A stretch of 64,000 nucleotides of DNA, taken from the IMG/VR virus record IMGVR_UViG_2675903278_000002; one strand, 5' to 3'. Shown here one piece after another: positions 583 through 33,030 of this stretch (its first letter is position 1; the number at the start of each line of letters is the position of its first letter). This stretch comes from a virus (lineage: Duplodnaviria > Heunggongvirae > Uroviricota > Caudoviricetes). The position numbers were made by a program, and so were the translations under genes. The notes below the pieces were generated by a model. The model was given only the letters and a program-made list of their open reading frames with translations. It searched no databases and was not told the origin of the DNA.

Positions 583-699
583 TTTTTGATAGATAATAAG
601 TAAGTACTGATCTATCATCTAACAGCTCGAAAGAGCCACGAATGAACGAAAGCCCAACGCGCATAGCGCCATCGGCCAAATCACAACAAGGAGAAACAC

Positions 700-1728
700 A
701 TGTCTAAGACATTACTTGATTTGCTTAACAAAACTCGTGAAGACATTGCCGCCAAACGTGGCAACAACGTTGATCTGACTCGCTTAAAAGACGGCGTCAA
801 CTATATCCGCATCTTCCCGAATAAAGACGACCCAAACGGTAAGTTCTTCCAGACTTTCGGTATGCACTACGTTAAGTATCAGAACGAGGAAGGTAAAGAA
901 GCAACCAACGCTTATATTTGTGAGCAACATACTCACGGTCGCGCTTGTCAGCTATGCGAAATGGTTATGGAAGGTCGCGCTCGTCACAAGGGTAACAAAG
1001 CAATGGAAGAACGCATCGGTCAAATGCGTGCCACTCCTCGCTACCTGGTCAACGGCATTCTTTCTGCTCGTGAGGATTTCGCAGATGCTGAGAAATGCCA
1101 GTTAATCGAGCTGCCGTCTACTGTATTCGATGATATCTGCAAAGCAATCACCGAAGACATCGCTGATGATATCGGCAATCCACTGAGCAAAGAGGAAGGC
1201 TACGCATTCCTGATTAAACGTACTGGCTCTGGTCGCGATACCAAATATGACGTCTCGCCTAAGCGTAAAGTCTACAAAGGCGATATCGAAGATAAATTCT
1301 GGAACACCCAGCATGATCTGATCGCATACGCAAATCAGGCTGATGAAACTCGTCTTCTGTCGACAGTTCGCACTATGGGTCGTCTGATTGGCATCGCTGC
1401 ACCAACTGCCGCAGCATCTGCACCAGCAATTTCCTCAACCGCGAAAACATCGGCTGCGGCACTACCTGGATTTGGCTCTGTCACTGGTCATACGGAGGGT
1501 GCGACTGCTGTAGCAACCGCTCACACCCCAGCTTCTGAACCAACCAGTCTGGTTGATGAAGAAATCCTCCGTGCCGTTGAAACTGAATTTAAACCAGAAG
1601 CAAGTTCCGCTGCCGTTGCCGTATCAGTCAAAGAGTCTGAAGCAGTCGCAGCGACATCTGTAGCAGCCGCATCTGCGACGGAAGACGAAGGTCTGGATGA
1701 CCTACTGAGAGAGCTGGACTCTCTGTAA
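700..1728 (+). CDS. single-stranded DNA-binding protein, T4 gp32-like
   Basis: gp32-like N-terminal core (IRIFPNKDD, Cys/His cluster CEQHTHGRACQLC), Ala/Ser-rich linker, acidic C-terminal tail DDLLRELDSL; start preceded by AAGGAGAAACACATG. Confidence 0.8.
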   Translation: MSKTLLDLLNKTREDIAAKRGNNVDLTRLKDGVNYIRIFPNKDDPNGKFFQTFGMHYVKYQNEEGKEATNAYICEQHTHGRACQLCEMVMEGRARHKGNKAMEERIGQMRATPRYLVNGILSAREDFADAEKCQLIELPSTVFDDICKAITEDIADDIGNPLSKEEGYAFLIKRTGSGRDTKYDVSPKRKVYKGDIEDKFWNTQHDLIAYANQADETRLLSTVRTMGRLIGIAAPTAAASAPAISSTAKTSAAALPGFGSVTGHTEGATAVATAHTPASEPTSLVDEEILRAVETEFKPEASSAAVAVSVKESEAVAATSVAAASATEDEGLDDLLRELDSL

Positions 1729-1744
1729 TCCCATTACGTGACCA

Positions 1745-1775
1745 GTAAGGCGTCTACGGACGCCTTACTTTTTGG
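1745..1775 (+). terminator. Rho-independent terminator after SSB gene
   Basis: perfect 10-bp stem GTAAGGCGTC/GACGCCTTAC, 4-nt loop, followed by TTTTT. Confidence 0.7.
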
Positions 1776-1788
1776 AAGGAATGTACCG

Positions 1789-2733
1789 GTGAATTATCTC
1801 TTCGTAGATGGCAATAGCCTGGGTTATTACCACCAACAATCTGACAAATTGCACAACGGCGAAATGGAAGTACAGGCTGCTTTCGGCTTTGTTAAGAACG
1901 TCCGTCGTTATGCCTCCATCCTCCATGCCCGACCTATGATTCTTTGGGATGGATTTAGTGACAAGCGTCGCGACTTTTACCCGGACTACAAAGCAAATCG
2001 CGACGACGATCCTGATATGAAAAAGATGAAGGAAGGCTTTGCTATCCAGAAGCCATACATCCTCAAAATGATGACCGCGCTTGGAGTTACCCAACTCATT
2101 GCAAAAGATGCAGAAGCGGATGATCTGGCCGGGCTGCTGGTATCCCGCATGGCACCGCAGCCAACCGTTGAACACATCTATCTGTTAACAGGCGATAGCG
2201 ACTGGCTTCAGTTAGTTCGTGAAAACGTAAGCTGGGTAAGCCTGCGTGAAGACGCCAAAAACAAGCAGGTTAATTTTGAGCAATTTGCGGAGCTGACAGG
2301 ATTCGCCACGCCTCGCGCATTTTTGGAAGCAAAAGCATTACAAGGCGATAACTCGGACAACATTAGCGGTGTTGGTGGCATTGGTGCTGGCGGTGCGAAA
2401 GAGCTGCTGCATGAATGGGGAAGTGTCGCAACGATGGTACGCGGCATCAACGACGGCTCAATCGTGGTTAATAAAGGGCGTCATAAGACCGCCTTCAACA
2501 AACTAGCGAAGAATGCCTTCAACGAGAAAACAGGCTGTCGAATGCTCGAAGCGTTCAAGAGAAACATCACGCTAATGAACCTGATTGAGACGAAGTTTCC
2601 GCCTACCGAAATCGAAACAATCAAAGGCAATCGTGACGTGAAAGCATTCGAGCAACTGTGCTACGAGCTGAATTTCCGTTCGTTCCTTGAAGACCTTGAA
2701 GTGTTTGTTCTTCCATTCGAAAGGTATTGCTAA
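1789..2733 (+). CDS. 5'-3' exonuclease / flap endonuclease (T4 RNase H-like, FEN family)
   Basis: FEN motifs (LTGDSDWLQL; H3TH region GDNSDNISGVGGIGAGGAKELL); start set at in-frame GTG 1789 downstream of the terminator hairpin (ORF track start 1738 lies upstream of the hairpin). Confidence 0.75.
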   Translation: MNYLFVDGNSLGYYHQQSDKLHNGEMEVQAAFGFVKNVRRYASILHARPMILWDGFSDKRRDFYPDYKANRDDDPDMKKMKEGFAIQKPYILKMMTALGVTQLIAKDAEADDLAGLLVSRMAPQPTVEHIYLLTGDSDWLQLVRENVSWVSLREDAKNKQVNFEQFAELTGFATPRAFLEAKALQGDNSDNISGVGGIGAGGAKELLHEWGSVATMVRGINDGSIVVNKGRHKTAFNKLAKNAFNEKTGCRMLEAFKRNITLMNLIETKFPPTEIETIKGNRDVKAFEQLCYELNFRSFLEDLEVFVLPFERYC

Positions 2734-2999
2734 TGCTTAAATCGATTATCAATGGCGCTACAACCACCCCTGCCCAACTGGCAAAAGAGATTGTCTTTTA
2801 TCACGGTGAGTACGCTGTCATCGCACTGCCGTCAATTCTAGGCGCTGCCGGAATGAAAGCGACAGATCGCGAGTTTGGATTAGTCAGCGAGCAGGTCGTA
2901 AAAATCCTCGCTCGTGTATCCAGACTCCTTAACCACGATGCGATTGTATTCGATGAATCCGCCGCTTTAAAACGAATCAACGAAACAAAAGGAGCCTGA
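2733..2999 (+). CDS. hypothetical protein
   Basis: ATG overlaps upstream stop (TAATG coupling); 88 aa. Confidence 0.45.
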   Translation: MLKSIINGATTTPAQLAKEIVFYHGEYAVIALPSILGAAGMKATDREFGLVSEQVVKILARVSRLLNHDAIVFDESAALKRINETKGA

Positions 3000-3001
3000 T
3001 C

Positions 3002-4075
3002 ATGGCAAAAGGAAAATCCGCACTGGCACTTGCTCTGAAAAAGAAAATCGGTAGCAACGACGAAATTCAGAAAGTAACTCATTGGATTGATACAGGCTTT
3101 CCACCGTTAAACAAAGCTATTTCTGGTCGTTACGATGGCGGCTTCCCATGTGGTCGTATCGTCGAAGTATTCGGTCCTCCAAGTGCAGGGAAAACGTTCC
3201 TTGCAACAGCAGCGATGATCTCCGCTCAAAAACAAGATGGTCTGGCGGTATTCCTCGATCATGAAAACAGTTTTGACGTTGGCCTGGCTGTAGCCAATGG
3301 CCTGAACGCAGATGAGGATGACGGTCAGTGGGTATACAAGCAGCCAGATACCTTCGAAGACTCTGTAGAGTTGATCGGCACAATACTTAAATTGGTTCGT
3401 GATGAAGAGCTTATCCCCGAATCAGCACCTATCTGTATCGTGGCTGACTCTCTTGCGTCTATGGTTCCGAACTCCAAAGCCGAGAAGTTCGAAAAGATGG
3501 CTGAAGGCACTGCCAAAGACAAAGATCAGCTAAACATGAACGACAATACGGCACTGGCTCGTGCGACGAGTGCGAACTTCCCTACTCTGGCTTTGTGGGC
3601 ACGCAAATACAACGCCTGCATCATCTTCTTGAATCAGGTTCGCACAAAAATCGGTGTAATGTTTGGCGACCCTACTACGTCGCCAGGTGGAGATTCACCG
3701 AAGTTCTACGCTTCTGTACGTATCCGTCTTGGTGCATCGGTGATGAAGGATGGTAAAGAGAAGATCGGCCAGGACGTAGGCGCAGAATGCATCAAAAACA
3801 AAGTTGCACCACCGTATGGCAAATGCACCTGGAAATTCTACTTCGATCCTACTCGTGGCCTCGACGTTATCGAATCGCTCGTCGAGTACATGCTGGAAGA
3901 AGGATACCTGCCAAAGAACGCCAGCGGGCGAGTTGAAATTGGTGACAAGAAATACACCAAATCGCAGATCGTTGAGATGTATCGGGAGAAGCCACTGGCT
4001 GAAATCATTGCGGCTTTGCAGGCAATCGACGACCGAAGAGCAAAAGACAACCCCACCGAGTCAGTAGAAGAGTAA
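3002..4075 (+). CDS. RecA/UvsX-like recombinase
   Basis: Walker A GPPSAGKTF, RecA-fold core, 357 aa, acidic C-terminus. Confidence 0.85.
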   Translation: MAKGKSALALALKKKIGSNDEIQKVTHWIDTGFPPLNKAISGRYDGGFPCGRIVEVFGPPSAGKTFLATAAMISAQKQDGLAVFLDHENSFDVGLAVANGLNADEDDGQWVYKQPDTFEDSVELIGTILKLVRDEELIPESAPICIVADSLASMVPNSKAEKFEKMAEGTAKDKDQLNMNDNTALARATSANFPTLALWARKYNACIIFLNQVRTKIGVMFGDPTTSPGGDSPKFYASVRIRLGASVMKDGKEKIGQDVGAECIKNKVAPPYGKCTWKFYFDPTRGLDVIESLVEYMLEEGYLPKNASGRVEIGDKKYTKSQIVEMYREKPLAEIIAALQAIDDRRAKDNPTESVEE

Positions 4076-4080
4076 ACACA

Positions 4081-4106
4081 AGGCGTCCACAGGACGCCTT
4101 TTTTAT
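4081..4106 (+). terminator. Rho-independent terminator after recombinase gene
   Basis: AGGCGTCC-ACAG-GGACGCCT hairpin followed by TTTTTT. Confidence 0.7.
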
Positions 4107-4167
4107 CTCTTGAAAATATATAAGTACTTACTTATTATTTTCGCATAACAACCACATAGGAAAACAC

Positions 4168-4368
4168 ATGATCAAAATCTATCTATTGGCAGTAACCACA
4201 GGCCTTTCAGTGGCTCTCATCTACGGTTTACTGGTTCCGTCGCTGATTTCTACCAAGAGTGATTTAGCCGTCATGTTTGGAGTTATCGTTGGTTTTGGTG
4301 CTCCTGTAATCGGTCTTATTGCTGGTCGTAAGTTTATCAACTCATTAATCAAAGCAAAGGGGAAATAA
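4168..4368 (+). CDS. small membrane protein (2 predicted TM helices)
   Basis: 66 aa, two hydrophobic segments; coupled to downstream SPFH gene (4-nt gap). Confidence 0.5.
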   Translation: MIKIYLLAVTTGLSVALIYGLLVPSLISTKSDLAVMFGVIVGFGAPVIGLIAGRKFINSLIKAKGK

Positions 4369-4371
4369 GTA

Positions 4372-5202
4372 ATGAAGAAAGGTTTACTTGCAGTTGCTCT
4401 GGCGGCTATTTGCACAATGGGTCTTACTGGCTGCGATCGCGTGGAGCCTGGATACGTTGGCATCAAAGTAAACAAATTAGGTGAAGACAAAGGGATTGGT
4501 GAAGTGGTTGGCGTTGGTCGCCAATGGACAGGTCTTAACACCGAACTTTACGTATTCCCGACCTTCAAACAAATGAAGACCTACGACGAGCCGTTCACAT
4601 TCCAGATGAGTGACGGTACTGCTATTGGTCACAAAATTGGCGTTGCGTATCTGGTTAATCGTGACAAGGTAACGACGGTGTTCCAGACCTATCGCAAAGG
4701 CGTAGACGATATCACCGAATCAGATCTGCGTCAGAAAATTGCCGACTCTCTAAACCGTTTGGCCAGCCGTATGACCACTGACTCATTTATCGACGGTGGT
4801 AAGGCACAATTGCTGGACAACGCACTGAAAGATATTCAGAAAGAGATGTCTCCGGTTGGTATTGAGGTACTGAGCCTGTCATGGGTTGGAAAGCCTGATT
4901 ACCCAAAAACTGTCATTGAATCTATTAACGCCAAAGTAACGGCTAACCAGCGTACTCTGCAACGTCAGCAGGAAGTTGAACAACGTAAAGCTGAGGCGAA
5001 TATGCTACGTGAACAGGCTAATGGTGAAGCTGATGCTATCCGTGCTCGTGCGCAAGCAGAAGCAGACGCCATTCGTCTGCGCGGTGAAGCTCTGCGTCAA
5101 AACCCGAACGTTATGGAACTGGAAGCCATCAATAAATGGAATGGCCAGTTACCGCAGTACATGACTCAAGGGGCTAACACTCCTTTCATTACAGTGAAAT
5201 AA
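4372..5202 (+). CDS. SPFH/band-7 (stomatin/prohibitin-like) lipoprotein
   Basis: signal peptide with lipobox (LTGC), SPFH-like core, Ala/Glu/Arg/Gln-rich coiled C-terminal region. Confidence 0.55.
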   Translation: MKKGLLAVALAAICTMGLTGCDRVEPGYVGIKVNKLGEDKGIGEVVGVGRQWTGLNTELYVFPTFKQMKTYDEPFTFQMSDGTAIGHKIGVAYLVNRDKVTTVFQTYRKGVDDITESDLRQKIADSLNRLASRMTTDSFIDGGKAQLLDNALKDIQKEMSPVGIEVLSLSWVGKPDYPKTVIESINAKVTANQRTLQRQQEVEQRKAEANMLREQANGEADAIRARAQAEADAIRLRGEALRQNPNVMELEAINKWNGQLPQYMTQGANTPFITVK

Positions 5203-5218
5203 CTCCCCTAAAAAGTTC

Positions 5219-5244
5219 AGGCGTCCAGTTGGACGCCTTTTTTA
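5219..5244 (+). terminator. Rho-independent terminator
   Basis: AGGCGTCC-AGTT-GGACGCCT hairpin plus T6. Confidence 0.7.
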
Positions 5245-5293
5245 TCGCAATTATCTTATTAAGAAAACAATTTGTTTAAAAGGATAAGAAAAC

Positions 5294-5719
5294 ATGACAG
5301 CTATTAAGAAACTCTACGATGCCGCAAACGTGGCTCTGGATGTTATTGATGATGAAGTAGCAAAAGGCTTTCCTGAACCTGATTGGGCGCATCAGCTACG
5401 AAACGCTATCGCAGAAATGACCCCACCAGATCCAACCCCCGACGAGACAGACTGGCAGCGATTCATCCGTATGTACGCTCAGGAAATAGGTCCAACGCCA
5501 ACGGCAGAGCAGGCAATGCTGCTGAAATACTTCAAAGAGGCGGGAGAGGATTTACCAATTGATGACTCAGCATATTGGTTCCACTGCGCATGGCGTAAGT
5601 ATGACGTGATATTCACACAAGGCATGGGAAGCAAAGATATGGTTGTGTGGCATCTACTCCATATAGACACAGCCGTTGACAGAGTTATTGAACAGTTTTT
5701 CCCTAAACAAGAAGATTGA
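5294..5719 (+). CDS. hypothetical protein
   Basis: 141-aa ORF preceded by AAGAAAACAATTTGTTT motif. Confidence 0.5.
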   Translation: MTAIKKLYDAANVALDVIDDEVAKGFPEPDWAHQLRNAIAEMTPPDPTPDETDWQRFIRMYAQEIGPTPTAEQAMLLKYFKEAGEDLPIDDSAYWFHCAWRKYDVIFTQGMGSKDMVVWHLLHIDTAVDRVIEQFFPKQED

Positions 5720-5774
5720 TCGCCTATTCATAACTAACAAAATAAGTAAACACTAACCACAAAAGGAAAAACAC

Positions 5775-6050
5775 ATGAGAGTTTTAGTTCGAATCGTTAC
5801 CAGCACTGTCTATGACGTGTTTCCGCTTTTTATGGTCAAAGCCGATGGCCTTAACGACGAAGAAACTGACGCGCTGATCCAGCGTATTCTCGTTGAATAT
5901 ACAGGTCATGACGCTGATTCAGTGATGGTTGATGATGATGGTGTTTGTTGGCATAACGGCAACTGTTGGTACGTAGAAGAGACTCAACAAATCAGTGATG
6001 AAGATGCCGAACATCTTGAGCGTATTTTAAGCATCAGCACTTTTGAGTGA
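5775..6050 (+). CDS. hypothetical protein
   Basis: 91-aa ORF preceded by conserved leader AAAGGAAAAACACATG. Confidence 0.5.
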   Translation: MRVLVRIVTSTVYDVFPLFMVKADGLNDEETDALIQRILVEYTGHDADSVMVDDDGVCWHNGNCWYVEETQQISDEDAEHLERILSISTFE

Positions 6051-6265
6051 GTTTACAGTAAAATTTATATAAGTTAGTATCTACCTATCATGAAGATTTT
6101 TATTGAATACTTGTTACTCATCGTTTCAATAGCTTTTGTCATCGACTGCATTTTCACTGGTGTCATTCGTAAAGTCTTTTCCCCGGTGCACGACGTAGTC
6201 ATAAACGCTTTGGCTATCGTGCTCGTATTTAATTCAGCATTTGATGTAATCAAAGAGGTGGCAGC

Positions 6266-6601
6266 ATGAAGGCCATCCCATTCGCGCTGTTGTTCCTTTC
6301 TTCGATCGTTGTGGCCGACACCACTGTTTATCAGTGTGAAATGTCTGTAGCCGACGTTAAGAATGGCGCTCTTACCGACGTCATAAAAGCACCATATGGA
6401 GCGATGGTCGTAGACAGCGGCGACCAGTTCTATGTTGTGCGTGACGATCGAGTGTTGTCATCCCCATATCTCACAAATCGTAATGGCAAATTAACCGGCG
6501 TCGGAGAAGACCACTTCGTATACAACAAATACAAGGGCTTCTATGGCGTTCACGCTTCTCAGCAAAGCTACCTTTTCGATGACTGCAAGGAGGTTGGATA
6601 A
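6266..6601 (+). CDS. hypothetical exported protein
   Basis: N-terminal signal peptide (MKAIPFALLFLSSIVVA), 111 aa. Confidence 0.45.
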   Translation: MKAIPFALLFLSSIVVADTTVYQCEMSVADVKNGALTDVIKAPYGAMVVDSGDQFYVVRDDRVLSSPYLTNRNGKLTGVGEDHFVYNKYKGFYGVHASQQSYLFDDCKEVG

Positions 6602-6813
6602 TGGCATTAACACTGGCAGGTCTGGAAATCGAGAAAACAAGCGGCTACTGGCGTGCTAAGGGTTTCAAGCAGCCTGGCATTCTTGAGCGTCTGGAACGTG
6701 AAGATGGGTATATCGTCCACCAGCGGCGTGAATGGCGTATGTACGATCCAGAAACAGGAAAACTGACTACAAAAGCCGGAACACTTTGGGGTCTGTTGAA
6801 GAAAATACACTAA
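6601..6813 (+). CDS. hypothetical protein
   Basis: 70-aa ORF, start overlaps upstream stop. Confidence 0.4.
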   Translation: MALTLAGLEIEKTSGYWRAKGFKQPGILERLEREDGYIVHQRREWRMYDPETGKLTTKAGTLWGLLKKIH

Positions 6814-6820
6814 TAGCACC

Positions 6821-7303
6821 AACCACTGCGGTGAGTAGTCTGCTCACCGCATTCGTATCCAGCTCATTATCCACTGTAGTCAGTAACAAAACCTTCCTAC
6901 ATATCTGCTAACCACTGTAGCGAGTAGACAGCCTTTCATTCGCATCAAACAACCACTATGGTGAGTATTGGAGTGAGATGTCCAGCGGGTATCCACTATG
7001 GTGAGTAAGCCTTTGCTGTTTTCAGTGGATATCCACTCGCCACAGTGGATACGCTCAAAGATGAGGGCGACAACAACCACTATAGACAGTAAATTTTCCA
7101 AGATACCCAGTGACCACTAACCTCGCAGCCCTTGTTTCATCAGTGTTAGTGATCACTAACATTTAATTCAGTATTTGCATTCTACTGCCTACAGTGGTTA
7201 TCAACAGATAACGATACTCACTATAGTGGATAGCGAATTACAGATATAAGTAAGGCTCACTACAGTGGATAGTGAGCCTTACTACTAACTACAGTGGTTG
7301 GGC
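6821..7303. repeat. iteron array downstream of repA (about 10 copies of a ~19-bp repeat, both orientations; incA-like)
   Basis: repeated (A/T)ACCACT(A/G)T(A/G)G(T/C)GAGTA units at ~6821, 6869, 6910, 6951, 6991, 7026-7053 (palindromic pair), 7075, and inverted copies at ~7217, 7257, 7287. Confidence 0.75.
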
Positions 7304-8358
7304 TATTTGCGAGTCTTTGCCTTGCGCAACTCTTCGAGAAGCGCCAGTTCTTCTTTACTCAACATGACCATTTTGCCTTCTTTTTCGTCAGGCACAACGT
7401 CGATAATGTCATCTTGATTCTCATCTGGGAGGCTATATTCCGTCTCATCATTATCGATTTTTGTTGATATTTGTGCCTGGCGTAACTTTGGCCGCCTATA
7501 GTGGATGACGAAGTAGACCGAGTTTCCGCGCTTAACTTCCGTGTAATCGAGATATCCTATCTCTCGCAGCTGTTCCATAGCCTTTCTTACCGTCGCATTC
7601 TGAGTAATAGTGCGACTTGTCAGATTAAGTCTGGCGCGTAAACGGGCTAGTGATATTGGTGCCGGATCAGGCGGCAAACTTTCAATAAAAGTATAAAGCG
7701 CCTGAGCGGATTCTTTTCTTGAGAGTTCGTTTATAGCCCGGAGTTGCAGAAGAACCTTTTTGTCGAACTGGTAGAGTTCGAAAATCTTGGGATCTGCTTT
7801 CAGTTCGACCGTATCGTGCTTGACACTATATTTTGCCGTTTGCACAAGATGCGTTACGTAAAACTCATCAGAGCCTTTGCTACGGAACGAGATGGTATTT
7901 GTGGCAATACGGCTTAGCGAACTGTCCAGGCGTTTGCGTAACTTCGCTGATGACCTGGCGGTCGGAATGCCACACAGCCTTACAAACTCAACGAACGGCA
8001 ACGTGACAGTATCGCCAACGACCTTGTGTTTGGCAAACGCGTGGATTATTCCCACCCACGTTTTAAAGTCGTTATCCATATCAAGCCGAAGGCCAGAGAT
8101 CCTTATGTCTTCGTACCCTTCGGCTTTTGCCAGAGACAGCTGTTTGAGTTCAGCAGAGGCATCCATAGAGACCATTTGCCCCTTTCTTCCTCTGGATGTC
8201 GATTTCAGCGTCGGAACGAAGAGGCCCAGACGCATCAAAGCAACAGGCTGAACAGTGTTATTAGTGTTAGGAACCAACGTAACAACTTCGCCTGTCTTTT
8301 TATCTGTTTCTGAAAATGCTTCAACGATCGCTATGTTTTTATTGCCGTTTTCGCTCAT
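7303..8358 (-). CDS. repA: plasmid replication initiator RepA (P1 RepA / RepFIB family)
   Basis: 351 aa; recalled similarity to P1 RepA ([30 protein letters not shown]); flanked by iteron arrays. Confidence 0.8.
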
Positions 8359-8403
8359 TCCAAATGTCTCTTGTTATTCGACGGCTTTGGTGGCCTTTGC
8401 TGA

Positions 8404-8528
8404 TTACAGTGGATAGTAGCACTCATCACAGCGGTTATCCTACCGTCTATAGTGGTTTTTCTCCTCTCTATAGTGGTTGCTTTGCTCCCTATAGTGGATT
8501 ATTCGCTCTCTATAGTGGATATCGATCA
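8404..8528. repeat. six direct ~21-bp iterons immediately upstream of repA (origin/incC-like)
   Basis: TC(T/C)CTATAGTGG(A/T)T units at ~8404, 8425, 8445, 8466, 8487, 8508. Confidence 0.8.
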
Positions 8529-8559
8529 TGTCTGAAGGCAGATGGCACAACGGTTTGAG

Positions 8560-8690
8560 GTGGGCGGGGATCTTATTGGGTCTTTATGGGTCTCTTTGGT
8601 TCTCTTTGTGATCTGAATTACTGGATCGGGCCTGTGGATAAAAATCAGAGGATTTCAAGAACAGGTAACTCTACTCTTCTGTGGATATTT
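8560..8690. promoter_or_regulatory. origin-proximal region with perfect DnaA box and GATC sites
   Basis: TGTGGATAA at 8633-8641 (reverse complement of TTATCCACA); second near-box at ~8679; GATC at 8569, 8610, 8624; TCTCTTT repeats. Confidence 0.6.
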
Positions 8691-8800
8691 AAGGACATAA
8701 GAATCATGACTAAGAGTAGAGTTTAAAATATATCTATGTATATCAGTATGTTAATGAAGAATTAAGTCATTAAGTTATCCATAAAAGACAATGTGCTCTA

Positions 8801-8908
8801 CTCTCTACAGTGGATATATACAGCTCTCCAGAGTGGTTGTTTTACTCTTCATAGCGGTTATTCAGCTCTCTACAGAGGTTTCTTTGCTCTCCATAGTGGA
8901 TGGCAACA
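8801..8908. repeat. second array of five direct ~21-bp iterons
   Basis: units at ~8801, 8824, 8846, 8867, 8888, preceded by an AT-rich stretch (8690-8790). Confidence 0.7.
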
Positions 8909-8944
8909 CCCTTTCAGACCAGTAACCGCAACGGCTAGAGGCGA

Positions 8945-9005
8945 TCGGGGATCTCTTTGGATCTTCTATTTGATCTTACTTGGGATCTCTTATTTGGATC
9001 TATCC
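8945..9005. promoter_or_regulatory. cluster of five GGATCT/TGATCT heptamers (Dam sites) at ~11-14 bp spacing plus DnaA-box-like site
   Basis: GGATCTC, GGATCTT, TGATCTT, GGATCTC, GGATCTA within ~55 bp; TTATCCACT-like box on opposite strand at ~8993. Confidence 0.6.
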
Positions 9006-9101
9006 AGTGGATAACTGGGATAAGTAAAACAGGCAAATGCAGATTAAGGTATGCCTAATGAGTTATCGTAGCATCGGCCAATAACTACTGAAAAAACGAT
9101 T

Positions 9102-9746
9102 ATGGATCTAAAACGCACGCGCTGGGTTCGTCGTCTTGAGGACGGCTCCTACACTATCGAATCAAATTCCAACCTGAATAAGCAGAAGTTACTTTGTGAT
9201 ATCTGCGGTATAGCGGCGAAGTGCCCGATCTACGAAACCAGAATTAAACTTGATAAGGCTGGTGTGAACTTTCATTTGAATAGTTGTATCAGGTACGTTC
9301 CATTGCTCGCATTTCGTAAACCGATCATCGGATTGGATGCGCCCTACTTCAACACACTCCGTTCAGGAGTAACGTGGCGAGATCGTTTATCACCAGACAA
9401 ACTGATTTGCCTTGTATCCGCAGATACAGGAAAAATCATTCGTTTTGGGAAAGTAGACAAGGTTTACTCAGGCCCAGTTGACGAGATGTTGCGGAAACAC
9501 AGCCGGTTTAATCACCTCTGCATGGGTGGTGAGAAAATCGAGAAGGTTGAAGAAGTGATCCGCAAATCCTACGGACACTTCCTGACCAAAGATAGCCTGC
9601 TCACTGCAATCTACATCAGACATGTAAAACGTGAGTTCGACCTTGAATACCATAGCGAAGAAGAACTGAACCTTGTCGATCCACGTCCTAAAGCTGGCGT
9701 CATAAGCATAAATGCAGCGCGTAAAAAGCCCACTGACGCGCTGTAA
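9102..9746 (+). CDS. hypothetical protein (Cys-containing, next to origin)
   Basis: 214-aa ORF; followed by hairpin at ~9769-9792. Confidence 0.5.
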   Translation: MDLKRTRWVRRLEDGSYTIESNSNLNKQKLLCDICGIAAKCPIYETRIKLDKAGVNFHLNSCIRYVPLLAFRKPIIGLDAPYFNTLRSGVTWRDRLSPDKLICLVSADTGKIIRFGKVDKVYSGPVDEMLRKHSRFNHLCMGGEKIEKVEEVIRKSYGHFLTKDSLLTAIYIRHVKREFDLEYHSEEELNLVDPRPKAGVISINAARKKPTDAL

Positions 9747-10000
9747 CCCTCCAGATCGTATATTGGCGTAGATAGAATCTACGCCCCCTCAAAATAGCTC
9801 TCATAGCGTTCTACAGTGATCCAGTCTTATTTTTAGTCATACAGACAAGCAAAGTTGCGCCACGATAAATAGGTATATACTTACTTATAAATTTTGTATA
9901 TTAAGGCGCTCGTTTCATTCCTAACATACCGTTATGCATAGTTGTTTACCTCCTCATTGCTCTTAGAATTTGTATCAAAATAACCACAAAGGAAAAACAC

Positions 10001-11086
10001 ATGACTTTGCCATACGGCGTCATTTCTGACTGCCACTACCACAAATGGGATGCGTTCTCCACGACGAACGCTGAGGGGCTTAACTCCAGACTTGAAATAC
10101 AGTTGGAAGCAACGAAAGAAGCAGCCATCGCCATGAAGAAGGCCGGTTGTAAGTACATGTTGGTTGCCGGTGATACATTTCACGTCCGAGGAACTGTGTC
10201 CCCTTCTGTTTTGCATTACGTAACTGAAACGTACAAGTGGATTATCAACGAGCTTGATCTGACAGTAGTAATGCTGGCCGGTAATCACGATCTTGAAACC
10301 AACGATTCAGTATATAGCGCCAACGCAGCAGCATCGCTGAGTTCTATCGGCGTGGTAATCGTATGTGGCAAGCGCCCACACTCAATAAAAATTGGTGATG
10401 TGACTGTCCACCTGATTAGCTGGCGTAACAATCATGCGGAGCTTATCAGCGATCTGAAAGCATTACGTAAGAGCGTAGAAGGTGATAATCATGACGTTGT
10501 TATCCATACATCCATTAACAAAGCCATTCCAACAATGCCTGACGTCGGTATCGATGCGCAGGAGTTAAAGGATATCGGCTTTCGTCTCGTGCTTAGTGGG
10601 CATTACCACAACCACAAAGAGGTCATTCCTGGAGTTATCAGTGTCGGTGCACTGACTCATCAAAATTGGGGAGATGTTGGATCTCTGGCTGGCTACATGA
10701 TCGTAAACCCGGACGGCAGTTTCAGTCACTACGAAACCAGTGCGCCTAAATTCATTAACCTGGAAGATGATGTTGCTGATGACCAAATTCGCGGCAACTA
10801 CGTGCGTTTCCGCGCCGTAATTGAGAACGATGAAGAAGGCATTAAGTACCAGAACATCCTCAAAACAATGGGTGCAAAAGGTGTCGTGTGCAACTTCATC
10901 CGTAAGTCATCAATGATGGAAGGTACAGCCAGCACAACTGAAACCAGCAAAATCGATAGCCTGGGAGAGTCGGTATCTGCTTATTGCAAGATTGTCCACG
11001 ATACTGACGGCGGATTTGATCTGAGCAAATTGGATATTTTGTGTCAGGAAATCCTCACCGAAGCGGAGAGTTCGGAGGCTGTGTGA
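10001..11086 (+). CDS. SbcD/Mre11-family nuclease (T4 gp47-like)
   Basis: calcineurin-like phosphoesterase motifs (DCHYH, GDTFH, GNHD, GHYHNH); conserved leader upstream. Confidence 0.85.
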   Translation: MTLPYGVISDCHYHKWDAFSTTNAEGLNSRLEIQLEATKEAAIAMKKAGCKYMLVAGDTFHVRGTVSPSVLHYVTETYKWIINELDLTVVMLAGNHDLETNDSVYSANAAASLSSIGVVIVCGKRPHSIKIGDVTVHLISWRNNHAELISDLKALRKSVEGDNHDVVIHTSINKAIPTMPDVGIDAQELKDIGFRLVLSGHYHNHKEVIPGVISVGALTHQNWGDVGSLAGYMIVNPDGSFSHYETSAPKFINLEDDVADDQIRGNYVRFRAVIENDEEGIKYQNILKTMGAKGVVCNFIRKSSMMEGTASTTETSKIDSLGESVSAYCKIVHDTDGGFDLSKLDILCQEILTEAESSEAV

Positions 11087-11315
11087 AGCAAAGTCGTTAT
11101 GGGAGCTTTCGAGACTTTGCCATCACGATGAAAAGACTTGAACGAGGCCAGACGGTGATGTTTCACAAGCCCTACCCGCCACAAGGAAATCCCGTAGCGT
11201 TTTATCTTGGAAGGTTAACAAGAAAAGGCGTATTGAGGCGCAGATCCTTCCCGGCGCATACGGAGTTCAGATTGAAAGAAGGCCAAAAGCTAACACGCGG
11301 TATCAGAGGTGTTAT

Positions 11316-13965: not shown

Positions 13966-13974
13966 GGAGACTAT

Positions 13975-14544: not shown

Positions 14545-14578
14545 TTTCATTGATAGGTAAGTGCTTATCTATTAACAT

Positions 14579-16970: not shown

Positions 16971-17039
16971 GTAAGCCTTGTTTAAACACATAAGATAACA
17001 ACTTGTTTAAACGCACCAAAAAAGAAAAAGGAAAAACAC

Positions 17040-18182
17040 ATGTCATATTCAACGTTCCGTTTGGGTGCTAATGATGCAACCAAAGAGCCTATGTTCCTCG
17101 GACAATCTGTCAACGTGGCACGTTACGATCAGCAAAAATACCGTGATTTTGAAAAGTTGATTGAACGTCAATTGTCTTTCTTCTGGCGGCCGGAAGAAGT
17201 TGATATTTCGAGCGATCGTATCGACTTCAACACGAAGCTGCGGGACCACGAACGTCACATTTTTCTGAGCAATCTCCGTTATCAAACGTTACTCGATTCA
17301 GTTCAGGGACGTAGTCCAAATGCAACGCTGCTGCCGCTTATCTCTATTCCTGAACTGGAAACGTGGGTTGAAACGTGGTCTTTCTCTGAGACTATCCATA
17401 GCCGCAGCTACACCCACATTATTCGTGGCATGGTGGACGATCCGAGCATTGTTTTTGACGGTATTGTTACGGATGAAGAAATCATCAACCGAGCGATCAG
17501 TATCTCTGCTGAATATGACAGGCTTTATGGGATGACCTGCGAGCGCCAGTCGTTAGGTGAGAAGGAATTTGAGCGTCTGTACGTAAATGAATATGGCTGG
17601 GAGCCATACCCTTTGCACCGTCAGCTTTTCCGCACGTTGGTGTCCATTAATGCGCTTGAGGCGATCCGTTTCTATGTAAGTTTTGCATGTACGTTTGCCT
17701 TTGGCGAACGGAAGTTGCTTGAGGGTAACACCAAAATTATGCGCTTTATTGCCCGTGATGAAGCTCTGCATTGCGAAGGAACTGAACGCATGATCCGCTT
17801 CATGCGTACCGGTCGCGAAGGTTTATTGTGGAAAGAGATTGCTGCTGATGAAGAAAACGTCATTTACGACACCATGAAATCAGTCGCCGAACAAGAAATG
17901 AACTGGGCAGACTATCTCTTCAAAGACGGTTCGATGATTGGTTTAAACGCGGATATTCTCAAAACCTATGTAAAATACCGCACCAATCTGGCTATGAATC
18001 GTCTTGGCCTGAAGGCTTTATTTCCAGAGGTTACCACCGATCCGCTGGTCTGGATGAACAAGTGGTTGTTAACCGACACACTGCAAATTGCACCACAAGA
18101 GGCAGAGCAAAGCACATATCTGGTAGGTCAGATCGATTCTACCGTGGATAAGGCTTCTCTAAGCCAGTTTGCAGACCTGTAA
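17040..18182 (+). CDS. nrdB: ribonucleotide reductase class Ia beta subunit
   Basis: 380 aa, position after nrdA, di-iron ligand-like E/H pattern. Confidence 0.85.
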
Positions 18183-19224: not shown

Positions 19225-19273
19225 TCTGTCTGGTCTTGTTCTCTCAATAAATGTAAACTCACGCAATGAATAA

Positions 19274-20404: not shown

Positions 20405-20405
20405 T

Positions 20406-20819
20406 ATGGCAAGAGGTATGTATGTCTTATGCGAAATTGAAGGTGTGCTGGCAAATGCCAGCCATCGTAAATCAGTATCTGACGCGGATGCAGGCCAGCT
20501 CATTGCCGGTGATGAACTCATTTTCCCCACCAGCCGTATGTTGCGTGGTTTTGCTCGCTCAGGGGCTGAAGTGGTGCTTATCAGTAGCCGCTCTGAAACT
20601 CTTGAAGCGCCAACTAAACGATGGCTGAAAGATTTTGGCGTTGATTATGACTGGCTTCATCTCGTACCGAATGGCACCAGTTATGAGAAGCATATTAAGC
20701 GCACATTAGCGGAGCATAAAGGCGATCTGCTTATCGCTGCGCTGGTGCACGATCCTCGACTCCGTGCCGCTTTAGCCGACTCTCACCATCGACCGGTCAT
20801 CTATGAGGTGAGCAAATGA
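20406..20819 (+). CDS. hypothetical protein
   Basis: 137 aa; ATG 2 nt after thyA stop; no canonical motif recognised. Confidence 0.45.
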   Translation: MARGMYVLCEIEGVLANASHRKSVSDADAGQLIAGDELIFPTSRMLRGFARSGAEVVLISSRSETLEAPTKRWLKDFGVDYDWLHLVPNGTSYEKHIKRTLAEHKGDLLIAALVHDPRLRAALADSHHRPVIYEVSK

Positions 20820-28886: not shown

Positions 28887-29501
28887 ATGTTCGGGATGTC
28901 AATTACTCAATCAGATGGAAGTTTGTGGATGAGTCCAGAATTTACTCCGCAAAATCTGATTAATAAAGGGACAATGTCTACATCTAAAGGTTCTGTTTTT
29001 CAAACATCAATCCCATCAAACAAATCATGCTTTTTCTTCATAAAAAGCAGTAATAAGGCGAACATGATGTTTATTCATGAGCATAGTAACGGATACAATG
29101 CTCTCAGATTGCATCAGGTAAATGGTAGCCCCGGAACAATAACAGTTTATGCTTTTTCTGATATGGTGTTACCACATTCTGGCTATGGCATTGCCATGTA
29201 TAACAGCGCAGGCGCAATGGTGTATCACGGTGAGATGATGCCCCTTGATGCGAAACTTATCACTATTTCTGACCCTCAATTTACAATAGATATGGGGTAT
29301 CCATGTGCGGTAATGCCTGCTATGGTTGGGGTATATAACTATAGACGAACCGATTACGACAGACCTGTCTATGTAACAATGACAGGTGCAACTGGAAACC
29401 AAGTATATAACGGTCAATGGTATTCCGGTAATGTCACATGGGATATTAAGAAGATTTATACAAACAAAATTCTGGTGATAAATACCTCCAAGTATGATTA
29501 G
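28887..29501 (+). CDS. hypothetical protein (low-GC insert)
   Basis: 204 aa from in-frame ATG 2 nt after upstream stop; Tyr/Asn/Gly-rich. Confidence 0.45.
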   Translation: MFGMSITQSDGSLWMSPEFTPQNLINKGTMSTSKGSVFQTSIPSNKSCFFFIKSSNKANMMFIHEHSNGYNALRLHQVNGSPGTITVYAFSDMVLPHSGYGIAMYNSAGAMVYHGEMMPLDAKLITISDPQFTIDMGYPCAVMPAMVGVYNYRRTDYDRPVYVTMTGATGNQVYNGQWYSGNVTWDIKKIYTNKILVINTSKYD

Positions 29502-29604
29502 CCAATGCCTTTATTTGAAGGATTGCCTGTTTATTTCTATTTAGTACCTTTTCATTTTTGAAATAATTGCACCATTAAACAAATCACTTCTTAATGGTGC
29601 AATT

Positions 29605-31290
29605 ATGAATACAGCCCTTTCCATCATCGACGATGCCAACTCAAACACTGCTATCGACTATCGGCAGGAAATGAACGTCATCCACGAAATTGTGGCCGAG
29701 TGCGAGAAAGAGATCGCCTTCATGTATCAGGTACACGACTTCGTTTATGGCGACGAACGCCACAACATGATTAATCGCCTGCTGAGACTAAACCATCGAC
29801 CAGATGAAGATCGCTCGCGTTTAAATCGAGGTTGGTTGGATAAAGTCGATCTGGAATGGGTGAAACAGAATATTTGGGCCGAGTACTGGAGGAAGGTCAC
29901 GGACATGACTAACGTTTTGCTGATCATGCCAGCTTCCCGTCGAGATGAGTGGCGCGAGCAGTTTATAGAGGGCAAACAGGAAGTCATCAAAACTGACAGA
30001 ACCGGCTACCAGATGAAGGTTAAAGAGTTCGTTGGTGTACCGGAGTTCAAAGCAGAAACGGTCATACCCACGATGCTTAATTTGCTGAATGACAGGCACA
30101 AATATCTCTCTGAGCGCGTGTATGGCTTGTTTAAGGCGCTGAGTCCTGCGCACAAGACAAATAAGACAAACGGTTTCAGCGAACGTCTGATAATCGCTGA
30201 CTGCATTTCTGATTTCTGGCGGGACAGCGTTAGTGTGAACTATCGCAAAGAGGACTATATCGACGATCTGCGTGTCTTGCTTCATTTCTTCGCGCACAAA
30301 GAATTTATTACCATCAACCGCACTGCTGAGGTGCTATCAGCTGCGTATCGGGCAAACGACTGCCAGACCGGTGACTGGATGAACGTCGATGGAAATCTAA
30401 TGCGCGTGAAGATGTTCAAGAACGGCAACGTTCACTTTGAAATACATCCTGACGTGGCCTGGAAGTTGAATGAGGTGCTGGCTTACAGTATGCCTGCTGC
30501 AATCCCCGCGCCATGTCGCACCGCGCCAAAAACACGGGCACCAAAGCAGTTCGGGTTAATCCAGAAGACGATCTCCGTGCCGGTTCGCACTGCGCTTCGT
30601 GACGGGCGATTAAGCAAAGACAAAGGCGTATGGTACTTCTCTGATTCAGCTCTCCAGAAGTCGCAGGTGGAAGAGCTTGAGCGCACACTGAGCTTCATTG
30701 GCGGCGTGCAGGAGAAAAAGCACTGGCAGTTCCCGTATGAGATCGGCCATACGCTAAATACGATTGTGGCTACCGGATTAATACCGGATACAAAATCACA
30801 CCAGTTCTACCCTACCCCACGCTTGATTGCTGAGTACGTTGCCAGAGCCACTGAATTGAAGTCTGGTGAGAAGCTGCTGGAGCCTCAAGCCGGACGTGGG
30901 GATCTTCTGGCCTATATCAACGCCGATCTGGAAGATGTTACCTGCATAGAAATCGCACCTCTCTTCGCTGATATCCTGCGCGGAAAAGGGTATACGAACA
31001 CGATTTGCTGCGACTTCATAAAGTGGTCTGAGGACAACGTAGGTTATCAGTTCGACAAAATCGTTATGAACCCGCCGTACTCGCTTGGTCGTCATAGAGA
31101 GCACACGCTGGCTGCGCTGGGGCATCTGAAAGTCGGCGGGCGTCTTGTAGCAGTATTGCCGGGCACTGCGCCAATACTGGACTGGATGACGATGGATAAT
31201 TACGTTTATGCCAGAGGGAAGTCGTTTACCAACGAGTTTGAAGACACAGGGATCACAGTCAGCGTATACGTTTTCAAACGCGTTAAATGA
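29605..31290 (+). CDS. DNA methyltransferase with long N-terminal domain of unknown function
   Basis: C-terminal ~170 aa carry SAM motif I LLEPQAGRGDL and catalytic NPPYS; N-terminal ~390 aa without recognisable motifs. Confidence 0.6.
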   Translation: MNTALSIIDDANSNTAIDYRQEMNVIHEIVAECEKEIAFMYQVHDFVYGDERHNMINRLLRLNHRPDEDRSRLNRGWLDKVDLEWVKQNIWAEYWRKVTDMTNVLLIMPASRRDEWREQFIEGKQEVIKTDRTGYQMKVKEFVGVPEFKAETVIPTMLNLLNDRHKYLSERVYGLFKALSPAHKTNKTNGFSERLIIADCISDFWRDSVSVNYRKEDYIDDLRVLLHFFAHKEFITINRTAEVLSAAYRANDCQTGDWMNVDGNLMRVKMFKNGNVHFEIHPDVAWKLNEVLAYSMPAAIPAPCRTAPKTRAPKQFGLIQKTISVPVRTALRDGRLSKDKGVWYFSDSALQKSQVEELERTLSFIGGVQEKKHWQFPYEIGHTLNTIVATGLIPDTKSHQFYPTPRLIAEYVARATELKSGEKLLEPQAGRGDLLAYINADLEDVTCIEIAPLFADILRGKGYTNTICCDFIKWSEDNVGYQFDKIVMNPPYSLGRHREHTLAALGHLKVGGRLVAVLPGTAPILDWMTMDNYVYARGKSFTNEFEDTGITVSVYVFKRVK

Positions 31291-31351
31291 TAGGTAAATA
31301 CTTACCTAATTTGTGTAAGAATGTAGTTACTAAACGATAAGAGAAAAACAC

Positions 31352-32056
31352 ATGAACAACCTCCAGTTAGAGCATTTTAACGTCACAGGCCATTCTGATT
31401 TTCCTTTCAAGTTTACATTGAAAGGTTATGCAGAGGATGCGGTAGGCCAGATCATTATTGATAAAGGCATCGTTAAGTTTGAGGGGGATTTTGATGAATC
31501 CGCGAAAACATTCATAGACTTCGTTGCCAAACGTTGGAGCGAGCAATGGAAAAACCTGGAAAAGCGCGCCAATGAGTTTGATCGGTTCATGGATGCAATG
31601 GATACAGCAAAAGAGGCTCTTGATGCCGGGACTCCGTTAGATCTGGAGTCACTTTTCAACGGCGAAGTGGCCTCTGCGATGTTCGCCACCATGTTCGCGG
31701 GTGAGTTCGTCCGCAGCGGTGCCAAAAACTACCTTGAGCTGGATTACAACGTCCCTGCAATTGGCGATTTCGTCGTTACCATCCAACGCAAAGAAGGTAA
31801 GACGCCAGGTGAACGCGTCGCAGAACTTGAGGCTGTTGTGGATCAGCGTAACGGAGAGTGTGACCGTTTGATCAACGAGCTTCATGCACTTCGGGAAGAA
31901 AGAATATGCGCGGGTAGCAATACACGTAATGCAGCGGATATCTACTTCCAGTTAGTTGAGGAATGCCAGATTCCACCAGGCGGCTCTCTTGTCGATTACG
32001 TCAGACATTTAATGACGGAAGTTAACTCCAGCCATAAAGATGGTGAGGTGCGCTGA
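31352..32056 (+). CDS. hypothetical protein
   Basis: 234-aa ORF; leader AGAGAAAAACACATG. Confidence 0.5.
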   Translation: MNNLQLEHFNVTGHSDFPFKFTLKGYAEDAVGQIIIDKGIVKFEGDFDESAKTFIDFVAKRWSEQWKNLEKRANEFDRFMDAMDTAKEALDAGTPLDLESLFNGEVASAMFATMFAGEFVRSGAKNYLELDYNVPAIGDFVVTIQRKEGKTPGERVAELEAVVDQRNGECDRLINELHALREERICAGSNTRNAADIYFQLVEECQIPPGGSLVDYVRHLMTEVNSSHKDGEVR

Positions 32057-32436
32057 TGTTTGGCATTGACGCACAGCGTATAGCCGCTTTTGCAAAAAGC
32101 CCTCTTGATAATCCCTTGTCTCGTAGTGAGCAAATGGAGCTGGCAAGGCTTTTTCTTCACATTCAAAAACAGGCAGACGTTTTCAATAACATGCCTGATC
32201 AACCTATTCTGGATGGTCACATCCAGATGGTCATTAACAGTCATGAGAAAGGCTGGGCTGCAATCGTCCCCTGCACAATTACATACAAGTTGGCGAAAGA
32301 GGTTCAAGAGTTTCGAAAAGTCAGCGTCGAATCAGAGTCTACCAAAGCCGCAATAAACACTCTTATTCGCATGGGGTTCACATGGGACGGTGGAGCTTAC
32401 TGGCAAGCGCCTCAACCCATTTTATACGGCAATTAG
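32056..32436 (+). CDS. hypothetical protein
   Basis: 126-aa ORF, start overlaps upstream stop. Confidence 0.45.
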   Translation: MFGIDAQRIAAFAKSPLDNPLSRSEQMELARLFLHIQKQADVFNNMPDQPILDGHIQMVINSHEKGWAAIVPCTITYKLAKEVQEFRKVSVESESTKAAINTLIRMGFTWDGGAYWQAPQPILYGN

Positions 32437-32574
32437 GCGCTACAAATCCTTCTGCATGAATAAATAAAGGCCATAACTTATGGCCTTAAATAAATTGTTT
32501 TCTACATTTTCTTATTTGTGAAAATAAACCAGCACTTGGTAGTGCTTATGTAACAGCAAAGAAGAGAAAAACAC

Positions 32575-33030
32575 ATGAGTAACAAAATCGAAAATCCCGT
32601 AGTTCTCATTCACAAGCGCGAGAACCACGACTCCTATGCGGTGGCGATCACCAATGGGAGTCACGATTTTTACGATGGCCTGCTAATGGCCTCAGTGTCG
32701 CCTGATGAGGCAGACAACTCTTTTGCCGTCTTCGCTATGGTTGGTTACTACATGGCTGCTGAAATTGAGAAGTTGCGGGCGCAGAGAGACGCATTAGCGG
32801 CGGAGAATGCAGCCCTGAAAGAATCTGAGCGAGCATTCGATGCGATGTGTGCCGAGGAACACGGAGATAATTGGGTTAGCGAATTAACGGAGACTCCAGC
32901 CACCGATGCTTTTCTGGCTGAAGTACGTGCGCAGGGCGTGGAGATGTTTGCTGAGTGCGCATACACACTTGAACATCATGATCACGCAGTAGCTTTTGCC
33001 GCTGAGCTTCGTACAGGAAATAAACAGTGA
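32575..33030 (+). CDS. hypothetical protein
   Basis: 151-aa ORF; leader AGAGAAAAACACATG. Confidence 0.5.
   Translation: MSNKIENPVVLIHKRENHDSYAVAITNGSHDFYDGLLMASVSPDEADNSFAVFAMVGYYMAAEIEKLRAQRDALAAENAALKESERAFDAMCAEEHGDNWVSELTETPATDAFLAEVRAQGVEMFAECAYTLEHHDHAVAFAAELRTGNKQ

Follow-up and report, generated by a model that had tools for sequence, protein, structure and literature searches.

A conserved A/C-rich leader at early genes of an SSU5-like phage-plasmid, a candidate translational enhancer

A shared leader at nine early genes

The window analyzed here, a 64,000-nt stretch of viral DNA (Caudoviricetes; IMG/VR record IMGVR_UViG_2675903278_000002), is an SSU5-like phage-plasmid in which nine early genes, for DNA metabolism and accessory functions, share an unstructured A/C-rich leader, RGGA(A)AAACAC-ATG. 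We lean toward reading this motif as a family-specific, cis-acting translation initiation region of the enhancer type that serves a subset of the early genes. Over its first 25 kb the window shares 98.9% identity with Escherichia phage Cyrano (OV696614; pLF82 of E. coli LF82) and ∼78% nucleotide identity with Salmonella phage SSU5; the alignment to Cyrano begins at about position 52,063 and wraps into the terminase and head genes. All nine leader sites lie within the early region of the window, whose genes include UvsY, a gp32-like single-stranded DNA-binding protein (SSB), an exonuclease, RecA, RepA, SbcCD, RuvC, NrdAB, ThyX, and DHFR, among others.

A first-pass annotation of the window had proposed that at least nine genes share the leader, and we confirmed ATG codons at positions 700, 4168, 5775, 10001, 17040, 27255, 27978, 31352, and 32575. 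The open reading frames (ORFs) that follow are 66–380 amino acids long, and each matches an annotated Cyrano protein from residue 1. The SSB of the window matches PF08804 (gp32) with an E-value of 1.7e-66, making it a true gp32-family protein. The nine sites, each given as leader plus start codon, are the following.

686..702, + strand: SSB (gp32-like), ACAAGGAGAAACAC ATG; weight-matrix score 23.4 bits; CACAACA directly upstream
4154..4170, + strand: small membrane protein, ACATAGGAAAACAC ATG; matched by the weight matrix; 21-nt island identical to Cyrano
5761..5777, + strand: hypothetical 91-aa gene (CYRAN_59 homologue); preceded by TAACCACA
9987..10003, + strand: SbcD-like nuclease; preceded by TAACCACA
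17026..17042, + strand: NrdB; leader kept in SSU5 and in a distant K. pneumoniae plasmid
27241..27257, + strand: TciA-like (TerB-domain) gene
27964..27980, + strand: hypothetical 189-aa gene (CYRAN_87 homologue)
31338..31354, + strand: Ead-like gene; weak Shine-Dalgarno (SD) sequence, GAGA
32561..32577, + strand: Eae-like gene; weak SD sequence, GAGA

A longer shared leader had been assigned to three of the sites; this held for 5775 and 10001 and failed for 4168, which reads CAACCACATAGGAAAACAC / CAACCACA. A further TAACCACA at 4193 falls within a coding region. We also considered TAACCACA as a DnaA box and set the idea aside, since it has two to three mismatches to TTATNCACA and the position of the motif is tied to the ribosome-binding site (RBS).

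All nine copies of the pattern AACACATG in the window are on the + strand, none being on the − strand, and every copy sits at the start codon of an annotated gene. Allowing up to two mismatches, AGGAAAAACACATG gave eight matches against 0.83 expected, a count reached in none of 100 shuffles. A weight matrix covering −14 to +3 scored the nine sites at 20–25 bits, with nothing at 12–20 bits and nothing on the − strand; shuffled sequence gave 1.2 matches at 12 bits or more. Because the family leaders used to build the matrix include the nine sites themselves, its meaningful result is the gap in scores, which argues that the sites form a discrete class and are not the top of a continuum.

Restriction to early genes and to one phage family

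The same class of sites stands out in the full Cyrano genome. Among its 123 annotated coding sequences, AAACAC lies directly before nine start codons, including that of PolIII-alpha, a gene outside the window, and every other hexamer occurs at most twice. Close variants precede three more genes (AAGCAC at the helicase, AAACGC at cobS, and AAATAC at CYRAN_87, whose homologues in the window and in SSU5 carry AAACAC itself). Overall, RRRYAC-AUG is found at nine genes in the window and about 12 in the full genome, all of them early; neither the full Cyrano genome nor the window scan showed a copy at a structural, lysis, or other late gene. Only ∼10% of the element's own genes use the leader, and most translationally coupled Cyrano genes are without it.

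Outside the family, none of 65 E. coli K-12 genes, which included the large ribosomal-protein operons, had the leader. For comparison, 89 unrelated viral contigs supplied 897 GGA-type starts, at which CAC ranked 41st of the 64 triplets for positions −3 to −1. Many unrelated viral contigs have a single copy of the exact 16-mer AAAGGAAAAACACATG, according to an exact-pattern scan that was of limited use, its hits being mostly single chance or sporadic RBS matches; the 16-mer can thus serve as an RBS elsewhere, and it is repeated only in the SSU5-like family. As a separate observation, the unrelated viral contigs L161 / L140 (GC 0.40) carry AAGGAGAAAAACAC-ATG, AAAGGAAAAACAC-ATG, and AAAGGAAAGAACAC-ATG at three genes within 10 kb; L161 had no megablast match in the phage collection.

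Composition and predicted structure of the leader RNA

The leader is short and consists almost only of A and C, with an embedded SD sequence (AGGA, GGAG, or GAGA), RRRYAC (usually AAACAC) directly before the AUG, and ACA triplets on both sides of the SD. Typical arrangements of the triplets are ACAAAGGA, ACAAGGAG, and ACATAGGA, followed by AAACAC-AUG. Between −25 and −1, leader genes had an A+C fraction of 0.77, compared with 0.49 in other genes (p = 2e-7), and 2.5 U residues, compared with 6.7 (p = 6e-6); within −12 to −1 of the leader, U made up ∼2%. ACA triplets numbered 2.9 per leader between −30 and +1 versus 0.61 in other genes (p = 4e-8), and the enrichment was also seen upstream of the SD only (1.25 vs. 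0.37, p = 4e-4), a count that is independent of the defining hexamer.

The minimum free energy of the segment from −30 to +33 was −5.1 kcal/mol for leader genes and −9.4 kcal/mol for other genes (p = 8e-5). In none of the nine predicted folds was the stretch from the SD to the AUG paired, and most z-scores were 0 or higher; no Rfam family matched anywhere in the window. A local antisense or sequestering partner was sought and rejected: The only reverse-complement match, TGTTTTTCC at 27125–27133, formed a structure with the TciA leader that was no better than a shuffle.

Conservation of the leader among relatives

Comparison with related genomes indicates that the leader is under purifying selection and is deeply conserved. 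In SSU5 all 11 copies are on the gene strand, and a set of 80 related IMG/VR loci (SSB 77%–100% identical, 1.41 Mb in total) has 240 copies on the gene strand and a single one on the other. In orthologous genes the SD part and everything upstream of it vary while RRRYAC-ATG stays constant. Mean column entropy at −8 to −1 was ∼0.3 bit across six leader genes, compared with ∼0.7 across 12 controls and ∼0.8 for third positions of codons. Individual genes agree with this picture. The membrane-protein region is ∼80% identical between the window and Cyrano, and its 21-nt leader block (AACCACATAGGAAAACACATG) is unchanged; AACCACAAAGGAAA is invariant in 16 distinct orthologous sequences of the SbcD leader; and SSB orthologues keep AAA(C/T)AC. 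The distance from GGA to CAC varies by 1–2 nt. The first-pass annotation had suggested that conservation of the leader exceeds what an SD requires. This was well founded, as the spacer is conserved beyond the SD in the nine copies as well as in their orthologues.

The motif reaches into distant relatives. The K. pneumoniae plasmid KpPF25 p2, whose SSB is 42% identical, has eight copies of AACACATG in 29 kb, all of them on the gene strand. The genes concerned are SSB, SbcD, NrdB, cobS, and that of the membrane protein, and also RecA; RuvC has AAGCAC. Both RecA and RuvC have ordinary leaders in Cyrano. As KpPF25 p2 keeps the motif, partly on other genes, the motif is old and the set of genes that carries it turns over. 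These alignments confirmed, at the level of sequence, that conservation beyond the SD extends to the whole SSU5 supergroup. Still farther away, Pseudomonas phage nickie has a syntenic replication module (SSB 30% identical) with no AAACAC; a different leader, (T)CAAACAG(C)GAG, recurs there before cobT, cobS, SbcD, and several hypothetical genes, and many operon-first genes have ACA directly 5′ of the SD, a lineage-specific counterpart.

Some leader copies also touch on gene annotation. In KpPF25 p2, the leader-based start of cobS, at 2318, is 12 nt upstream of the annotated one at 2330, and in SSU5, leader-ATGs at 35837 and 39590 closely precede the starts annotated for primase and ligase. The motif thus seems to point to mis-called starts or missed small ORFs in public annotations, and a practical use for it would be the correction of start-codon calls, such as that of cobS in KpPF25 p2 and possibly those in the SSU5 ligase and primase regions.

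A candidate ACA-type translational enhancer

A class of A/C-rich enhancers is known from enteric hosts. In Salmonella, ACA triplets next to the SD stimulate translation of yifK; any base change in them lowers expression, and triple changes do so by up to ∼90% (Yang, Figueroa-Bossi & Bossi 2014, PMC3879156). Replacement of four ACAs in dppA reduced expression >100-fold, and the ACA effect needs no fixed distance to the SD or AUG (PMC3879156). The same work suggested that ACA offers the 30S subunit an anchor point, with ribosomal protein S1 as the possible reader, and reported that the G/U-rich small RNA (sRNA) GcvB, which has dppA as a named target, represses by pairing with ACA elements (PMC3879156). 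A transferable C/A-rich enhancer has been described for gltI (Sharma et al. 2007, as cited in PMC3879156).

Like the enhancers of yifK, dppA, and gltI, the leader is A/C-rich and G-poor, has ACA near the SD in a flexible position, and occurs in the same hosts; like them, it is complementary to the R1 region of GcvB. The E. coli dppA leader (AAAACAACAAACAUCACAAUUGGAG / AACAUCACAAUUGGAG / AAAACAACAAACAUCACAAUUGGAGCAGAAUA-AUG) closely resembles that of the SSB gene (AAAUCACAACAAGGAG / AAUCACAACAAGGAG / AAAUCACAACAAGGAGAAACAC-AUG). It is on this likeness, together with the ACA 5′ of the SD in phage nickie, that we read the motif as a phage-plasmid version of the enhancer in which the ACA-containing spacer is unusually fixed. 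Enhancer activity is suggested by this analogy and could arise in several ways. A leader made only of A and C would be unable to fold on itself and would hold no alternative start codon, so that the RBS would always be open; the ACA triplets would act as translation-enhancing modules, as in yifK and dppA; and the scarcity of U may also take away sites that RNase E prefers. The leader mRNAs would then be expected to be translated fast, strongly, and uniformly once the early promoters fire.

Several observations depart from the known cases or weigh against an enhancer. The published ACA enhancers lie upstream of the SD, whereas the most conserved ACA of the leader lies between the SD and the AUG. 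Unlike in the known cases, about 12 unrelated genes, and distant relatives too, have one fixed hexamer, and the carriers are phage early genes instead of amino-acid transporters. Substitutions in the hexamer are mostly transitions (AAATAC, AAGCAC, AGACAC, AAACGC) and not a free exchange of A and C, which argues that the constraint is sequence-specific and not only compositional. Different genes share the same hexamer in distant families, as would be expected of a regulon with a common trans-acting factor. Finally, if the sequence were just a very efficient initiation region, it might be expected at the most highly expressed late genes (e.g., the major capsid protein); no late gene has it, nor do host ribosomal-protein genes or unrelated phages.

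If the enhancer reading is right, the leader would offer a natural, strongly conserved case in which an ACA-type enhancer stands between the SD and AUG, marking a defined subset of early genes. It makes the help that ACA gives to the 30S subunit testable, as well as the post-transcriptional control of early lytic genes through either a phage factor or GcvB of the host. The SSU5-like phage-plasmids occur widely in E. coli, Klebsiella, Salmonella, Enterobacter, and Yersinia, and an SSB of their type is encoded in 829 plasmid records. Our literature search turned up no published work on gene regulation in SSU5-like elements; the LF82 paper lists no leader gene among those expressed in lysogeny and reports that ciprofloxacin induces Cyrano.

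Regulators encoded by the phage

The main alternative to a cis-acting enhancer is a trans-acting layer, encoded by the phage or by the host (GcvB). It is possible, though in our judgment unlikely, that the leader is the operator of a phage translational regulator, an analogue of RegA or of gp32 autoregulation, which would shut off or switch on about 12 early mRNAs through RRRYAC-AUG. The motif overlaps the start codon, is confined to early and DNA-metabolism genes to the exclusion of late ones, and is specific in sequence beyond mere composition. It is also particular to the family, being absent from host genes and unrelated phages, and the entry of different genes into the set in a distant family resembles the evolution of a regulon. 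Short conserved sequences over the start codons of many early replication and nucleotide-metabolism genes are likewise seen in T4 RegA operators, and the element has T4-like recombination and replication genes (UvsY, gp32, UvsW, and gp46/47-like).

Against such a regulator, the variable GGA–CAC distance must be counted, and no candidate basic small RNA-binding protein was identified. Neither RegA (PF01818) nor the RegB family gave a Pfam match (E ≤ 0.01) in 66 hypothetical or poorly annotated Cyrano proteins and nine window-specific ORFs, confidently annotated proteins not having been rescanned. Both RegA and gp32 of T4 have a preference for RNA rich in A and U, and gp32 binds poly(rC) poorly; unlike the A/U-rich RegA operators, the leader is A/C-rich with almost no U.

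The SSB gene calls for separate treatment, as the element encodes a gp32-family SSB and the leader of its own mRNA stands behind conserved hairpins.

625..676, + strand: conserved hairpins of the SSB 5′ untranslated region (UTR), GCUC-GAAA-GAGC at 625–636 and GCC..[GCGC-loop-GCGC]..GGC at 652–676, followed by the unstructured leader

In 12 diverse sequences, the stems are invariant or changed only to wobble pairs and the loops vary; the same sequences showed no compensatory changes, covariation, or predicted pseudoknot. Like the T4 gene 32 leader, the SSB 5′ UTR has a structured 5′ element and then an unstructured stretch over the RBS; unlike it, the unstructured part is common to eight other genes and is A/C-rich, not A/U-rich. 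Autoregulation of the gp32 type is plausible for the SSB gene alone.

In a broader form, which we hold to be similarly improbable, the AAACAC-AUG block and the upstream CACAA/ACA would be the operator that defines a regulon, placing about a dozen early lytic genes under an unrecognised phage RNA-binding protein (a non-homologous analogue of RegA) or under host GcvB. With GcvB in this role, leaky or induced lytic expression would be coupled to the amino-acid status of the host.

A 200-aa protein encoded at 48097–48699 on the − strand of the window has a full-length match to PF03614 (Flag1_repress, FljA; E-value 2.6e-79 for the Cyrano copy) and is only 78% identical to the Cyrano copy. We rejected it as a leader-binding factor, as the E. 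coli fliC 5′ UTR, the presumed target of FljA, is unlike the leader. A flagellin repressor borne on a phage-plasmid would be a lysogenic-conversion function.

Regulators encoded by the host

Less probable again is a host post-transcriptional regulator that recognizes C/A-rich or ACA-GGA sites and so ties early lytic translation to host physiology. The main candidate is the Hfq-dependent sRNA GcvB, whose R1 seed is rich in G and U, with CsrA and MazF as other candidates. Silencing of ACA enhancers by GcvB has been established (PMC3879156), and in all nine window leaders the 7 nt from −6 to +1, AAACACA, are perfectly complementary to UGUGUUU of R1. In the SSB leader a further segment, AUCACAAC (8 nt), is complementary to GUUGUGAU in R1, the segment that is also complementary to AUCACAA of the E. 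coli dppA leader. Complements of at least 7 nt were present in nine of 12 leader genes but in only six of 111 other genes. However, we estimate that any A/C-only 7-mer has a ∼15% chance of matching the G/U-only R1, making the complementarity weak evidence. A crude comparison of duplex energies did not separate leader genes from others (p = 0.13); it gave unrealistically loopy duplexes with R1, and the count of contiguous complements was used in its place. Moreover, the two complementary segments of the SSB leader cannot pair with R1 simultaneously, their order being wrong. As for CsrA, it usually needs two sites, and the leaders have one GGA. Pairing of the leader with 16S rRNA (CAUGUGGUUU near position 950) was dropped as a candidate, since that rRNA segment is base-paired inside the ribosome.

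Cassette duplication and the promoters upstream

The first-pass annotation had offered duplication of a promoter-leader cassette as an explanation. In that case the nine copies would be recent duplicates of one cassette, or products of gene conversion, with no selected function; the extent of their similarity makes this very improbable, and we reject it. Identity among the nine copies is 1.0 at −6 to −1, 0.6 at −14 to −7, and 0.38 at −23 to −15; beyond −24, pairwise identity is 0.28–0.32 against 0.25 expected, and it is also at background downstream of the ATG. No promoter-plus-leader homology of >40 nt was found among the nine copies. The motif is kept at orthologous positions (SSU5, 78% nucleotide identity; KpPF25 p2, 42% SSB identity) while the flanks diverge.

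The promoter and operator elements upstream are moreover of at least two unrelated kinds. Those predicted at the leader genes, with one neighboring hairpin, are the following.

590..618, + strand: predicted SSB promoter, TAGATA-N17-TATCAT, with ATAAGTAAGTAC in the spacer
4080–4100: terminator-like hairpin ahead of the membrane-protein promoter
4110..4138, + strand: predicted sigma-70-type promoter of the membrane-protein gene, TTGAAA-N17-TATTAT, 10/12 matches, with the palindrome ATAAGTACTTACTTAT in the spacer
9964..9969, + strand: predicted −10 hexamer TAGAAT of the SbcD transcription unit; TAnnAT in all orthologues
31314..31322, + strand: predicted extended −10, TGTAAGAAT, upstream of the Ead leader

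The positions of promoters and 5′ ends are thus predictions; the promoter at 4110..4138 would yield a 5′ UTR of ∼25 nt made of the leader. The sigma-70-type promoters before the membrane-protein and SSB genes have a TAAGTA/TACTTA palindrome in the spacer, another palindrome, AAACAAnTTGTTT, precedes the NrdB, TciA-like, and CYRAN_87-homologue leaders, and at PolIII-alpha an upstream ORF overlaps the leader. Since these control regions differ in kind, the leader appears to be an independent module that is placed on several promoter types.

Two points favor copying. AACCACA upstream is common to three leaders, and the element has a separate cassette-like repeat of ∼60 nt (gCCTTTT...GATAAT...ACCAACAAGA-AAACAAnTTGTTT-SD), which implies that copying of regulatory modules happens in it. 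A related comparison is with PeSL (promoter-early stem-loop), the mobile regulatory cassettes of T4-type phages, whole promoter and stem-loop modules that reportedly mediate shuffling (Arbiol, Comeau & Krisch 2010). Like these, the leader is a regulatory sequence repeated before many early genes; unlike them, its similarity is limited to at most 23 nt at the RBS, and in one place examined it is not a mosaic junction. In the two places compared with Cyrano for a mosaic recombination junction, the leader was an identical island or within near-identical sequence, with no breakpoint, and the idea was rejected. The better analogue of PeSL is the ∼60-nt cassette at 39–45 kb.

This cassette runs from gCCTTTT through ∼10 nt, GATAAT (−10-like), ACCAACAAGA, the palindrome, and an SD to the ATG. 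The palindrome AAACAAnTTGTTT is present 16 times in the window (13-nt cores at 5265, 16996, 27218, 27947, 32488, 39356, 39407, 41020, 42215, 42592, 43076, 43979, 44729, 45214, 54331, and 54356), and many of these copies are in the cassette, which fronts small hypothetical genes, is densest at 39–45 kb, and is also present in SSU5 and the distant Klebsiella plasmid. This seems to be the true promoter cassette of the element. With GATAAT as the −10, the palindrome would lie at about +7 to +20 of the transcript; it looks like an early-promoter operator.

A second palindrome, ATA(A/G)GTAnnnTACTTA(C/T)CTAT, is found at 598–612, 4122–4133, 9871–9882, 24107–24118, 26322–26337, 31292–31303, 43481–43492, 51005–51020, and 63298–63309, overlapping the −35 or the spacer of sigma-70-like promoters with a TAAGAAT/TAGAAT −10. 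In Cyrano a copy (GGTAAGCACTTACC) also stands in the divergent region that precedes the putative repressor gene CYRAN_45, and the palindrome is a candidate for the operator at which the prophage repressor acts. The short gaps between late genes are filled by half-sites (GATAAGTAAGTAAC).

The weakest explanation, that the leader is no more than the generic optimal host RBS and its spacing, has in its favor that AGGA with a 6- to 7-nt A-rich spacer is a near-optimal arrangement and that the exact 16-mer turns up singly elsewhere, but it is contradicted by our scans and rejected: The leader is confined to ∼10% of the element's genes, it is absent from the 65 E. coli genes, CAC before the ATG ranks only 41st in the unrelated contigs, and the spacer is two to three times more conserved than in controls. 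The scan that the first-pass annotation had named as its own refutation thus did not refute it.

Other features of the element

Downstream from the cassette-like promoter at 41020, the window has ∼700 nt (∼40800–41550, + strand) that are strongly A/C-rich and G/T-poor, with an AT skew of 0.185 and a GC skew of −0.10 in the 2-kb bin. In Cyrano only low-complexity ORFs are annotated there (CYRAN_103/104), and the stretch contains four repeats of the type GCCATT(A/T)C(C/T)C. Possible identities are a non-coding RNA, an R-loop region, and an origin or iteron region.

The RecA gene spans 1074 nt in the window (3002–4075) and 2340 nt in Cyrano (55065–57404), where it has an insertion of ∼1.3 kb (intein or homing-endonuclease-like) from which the window is free. 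In some relatives PolIII-alpha appears split into ORFs of 787 and 389 aa, the second of which begins with an AAACAC-type leader. Finally, accessory genes at 34826–35077 and 37238–39271 of the window encode a homologue of the DNA polymerase III theta subunit (PF06440, E-value 4.5e-34) and a full-length methionyl-tRNA synthetase (CYRAN_100 in Cyrano).

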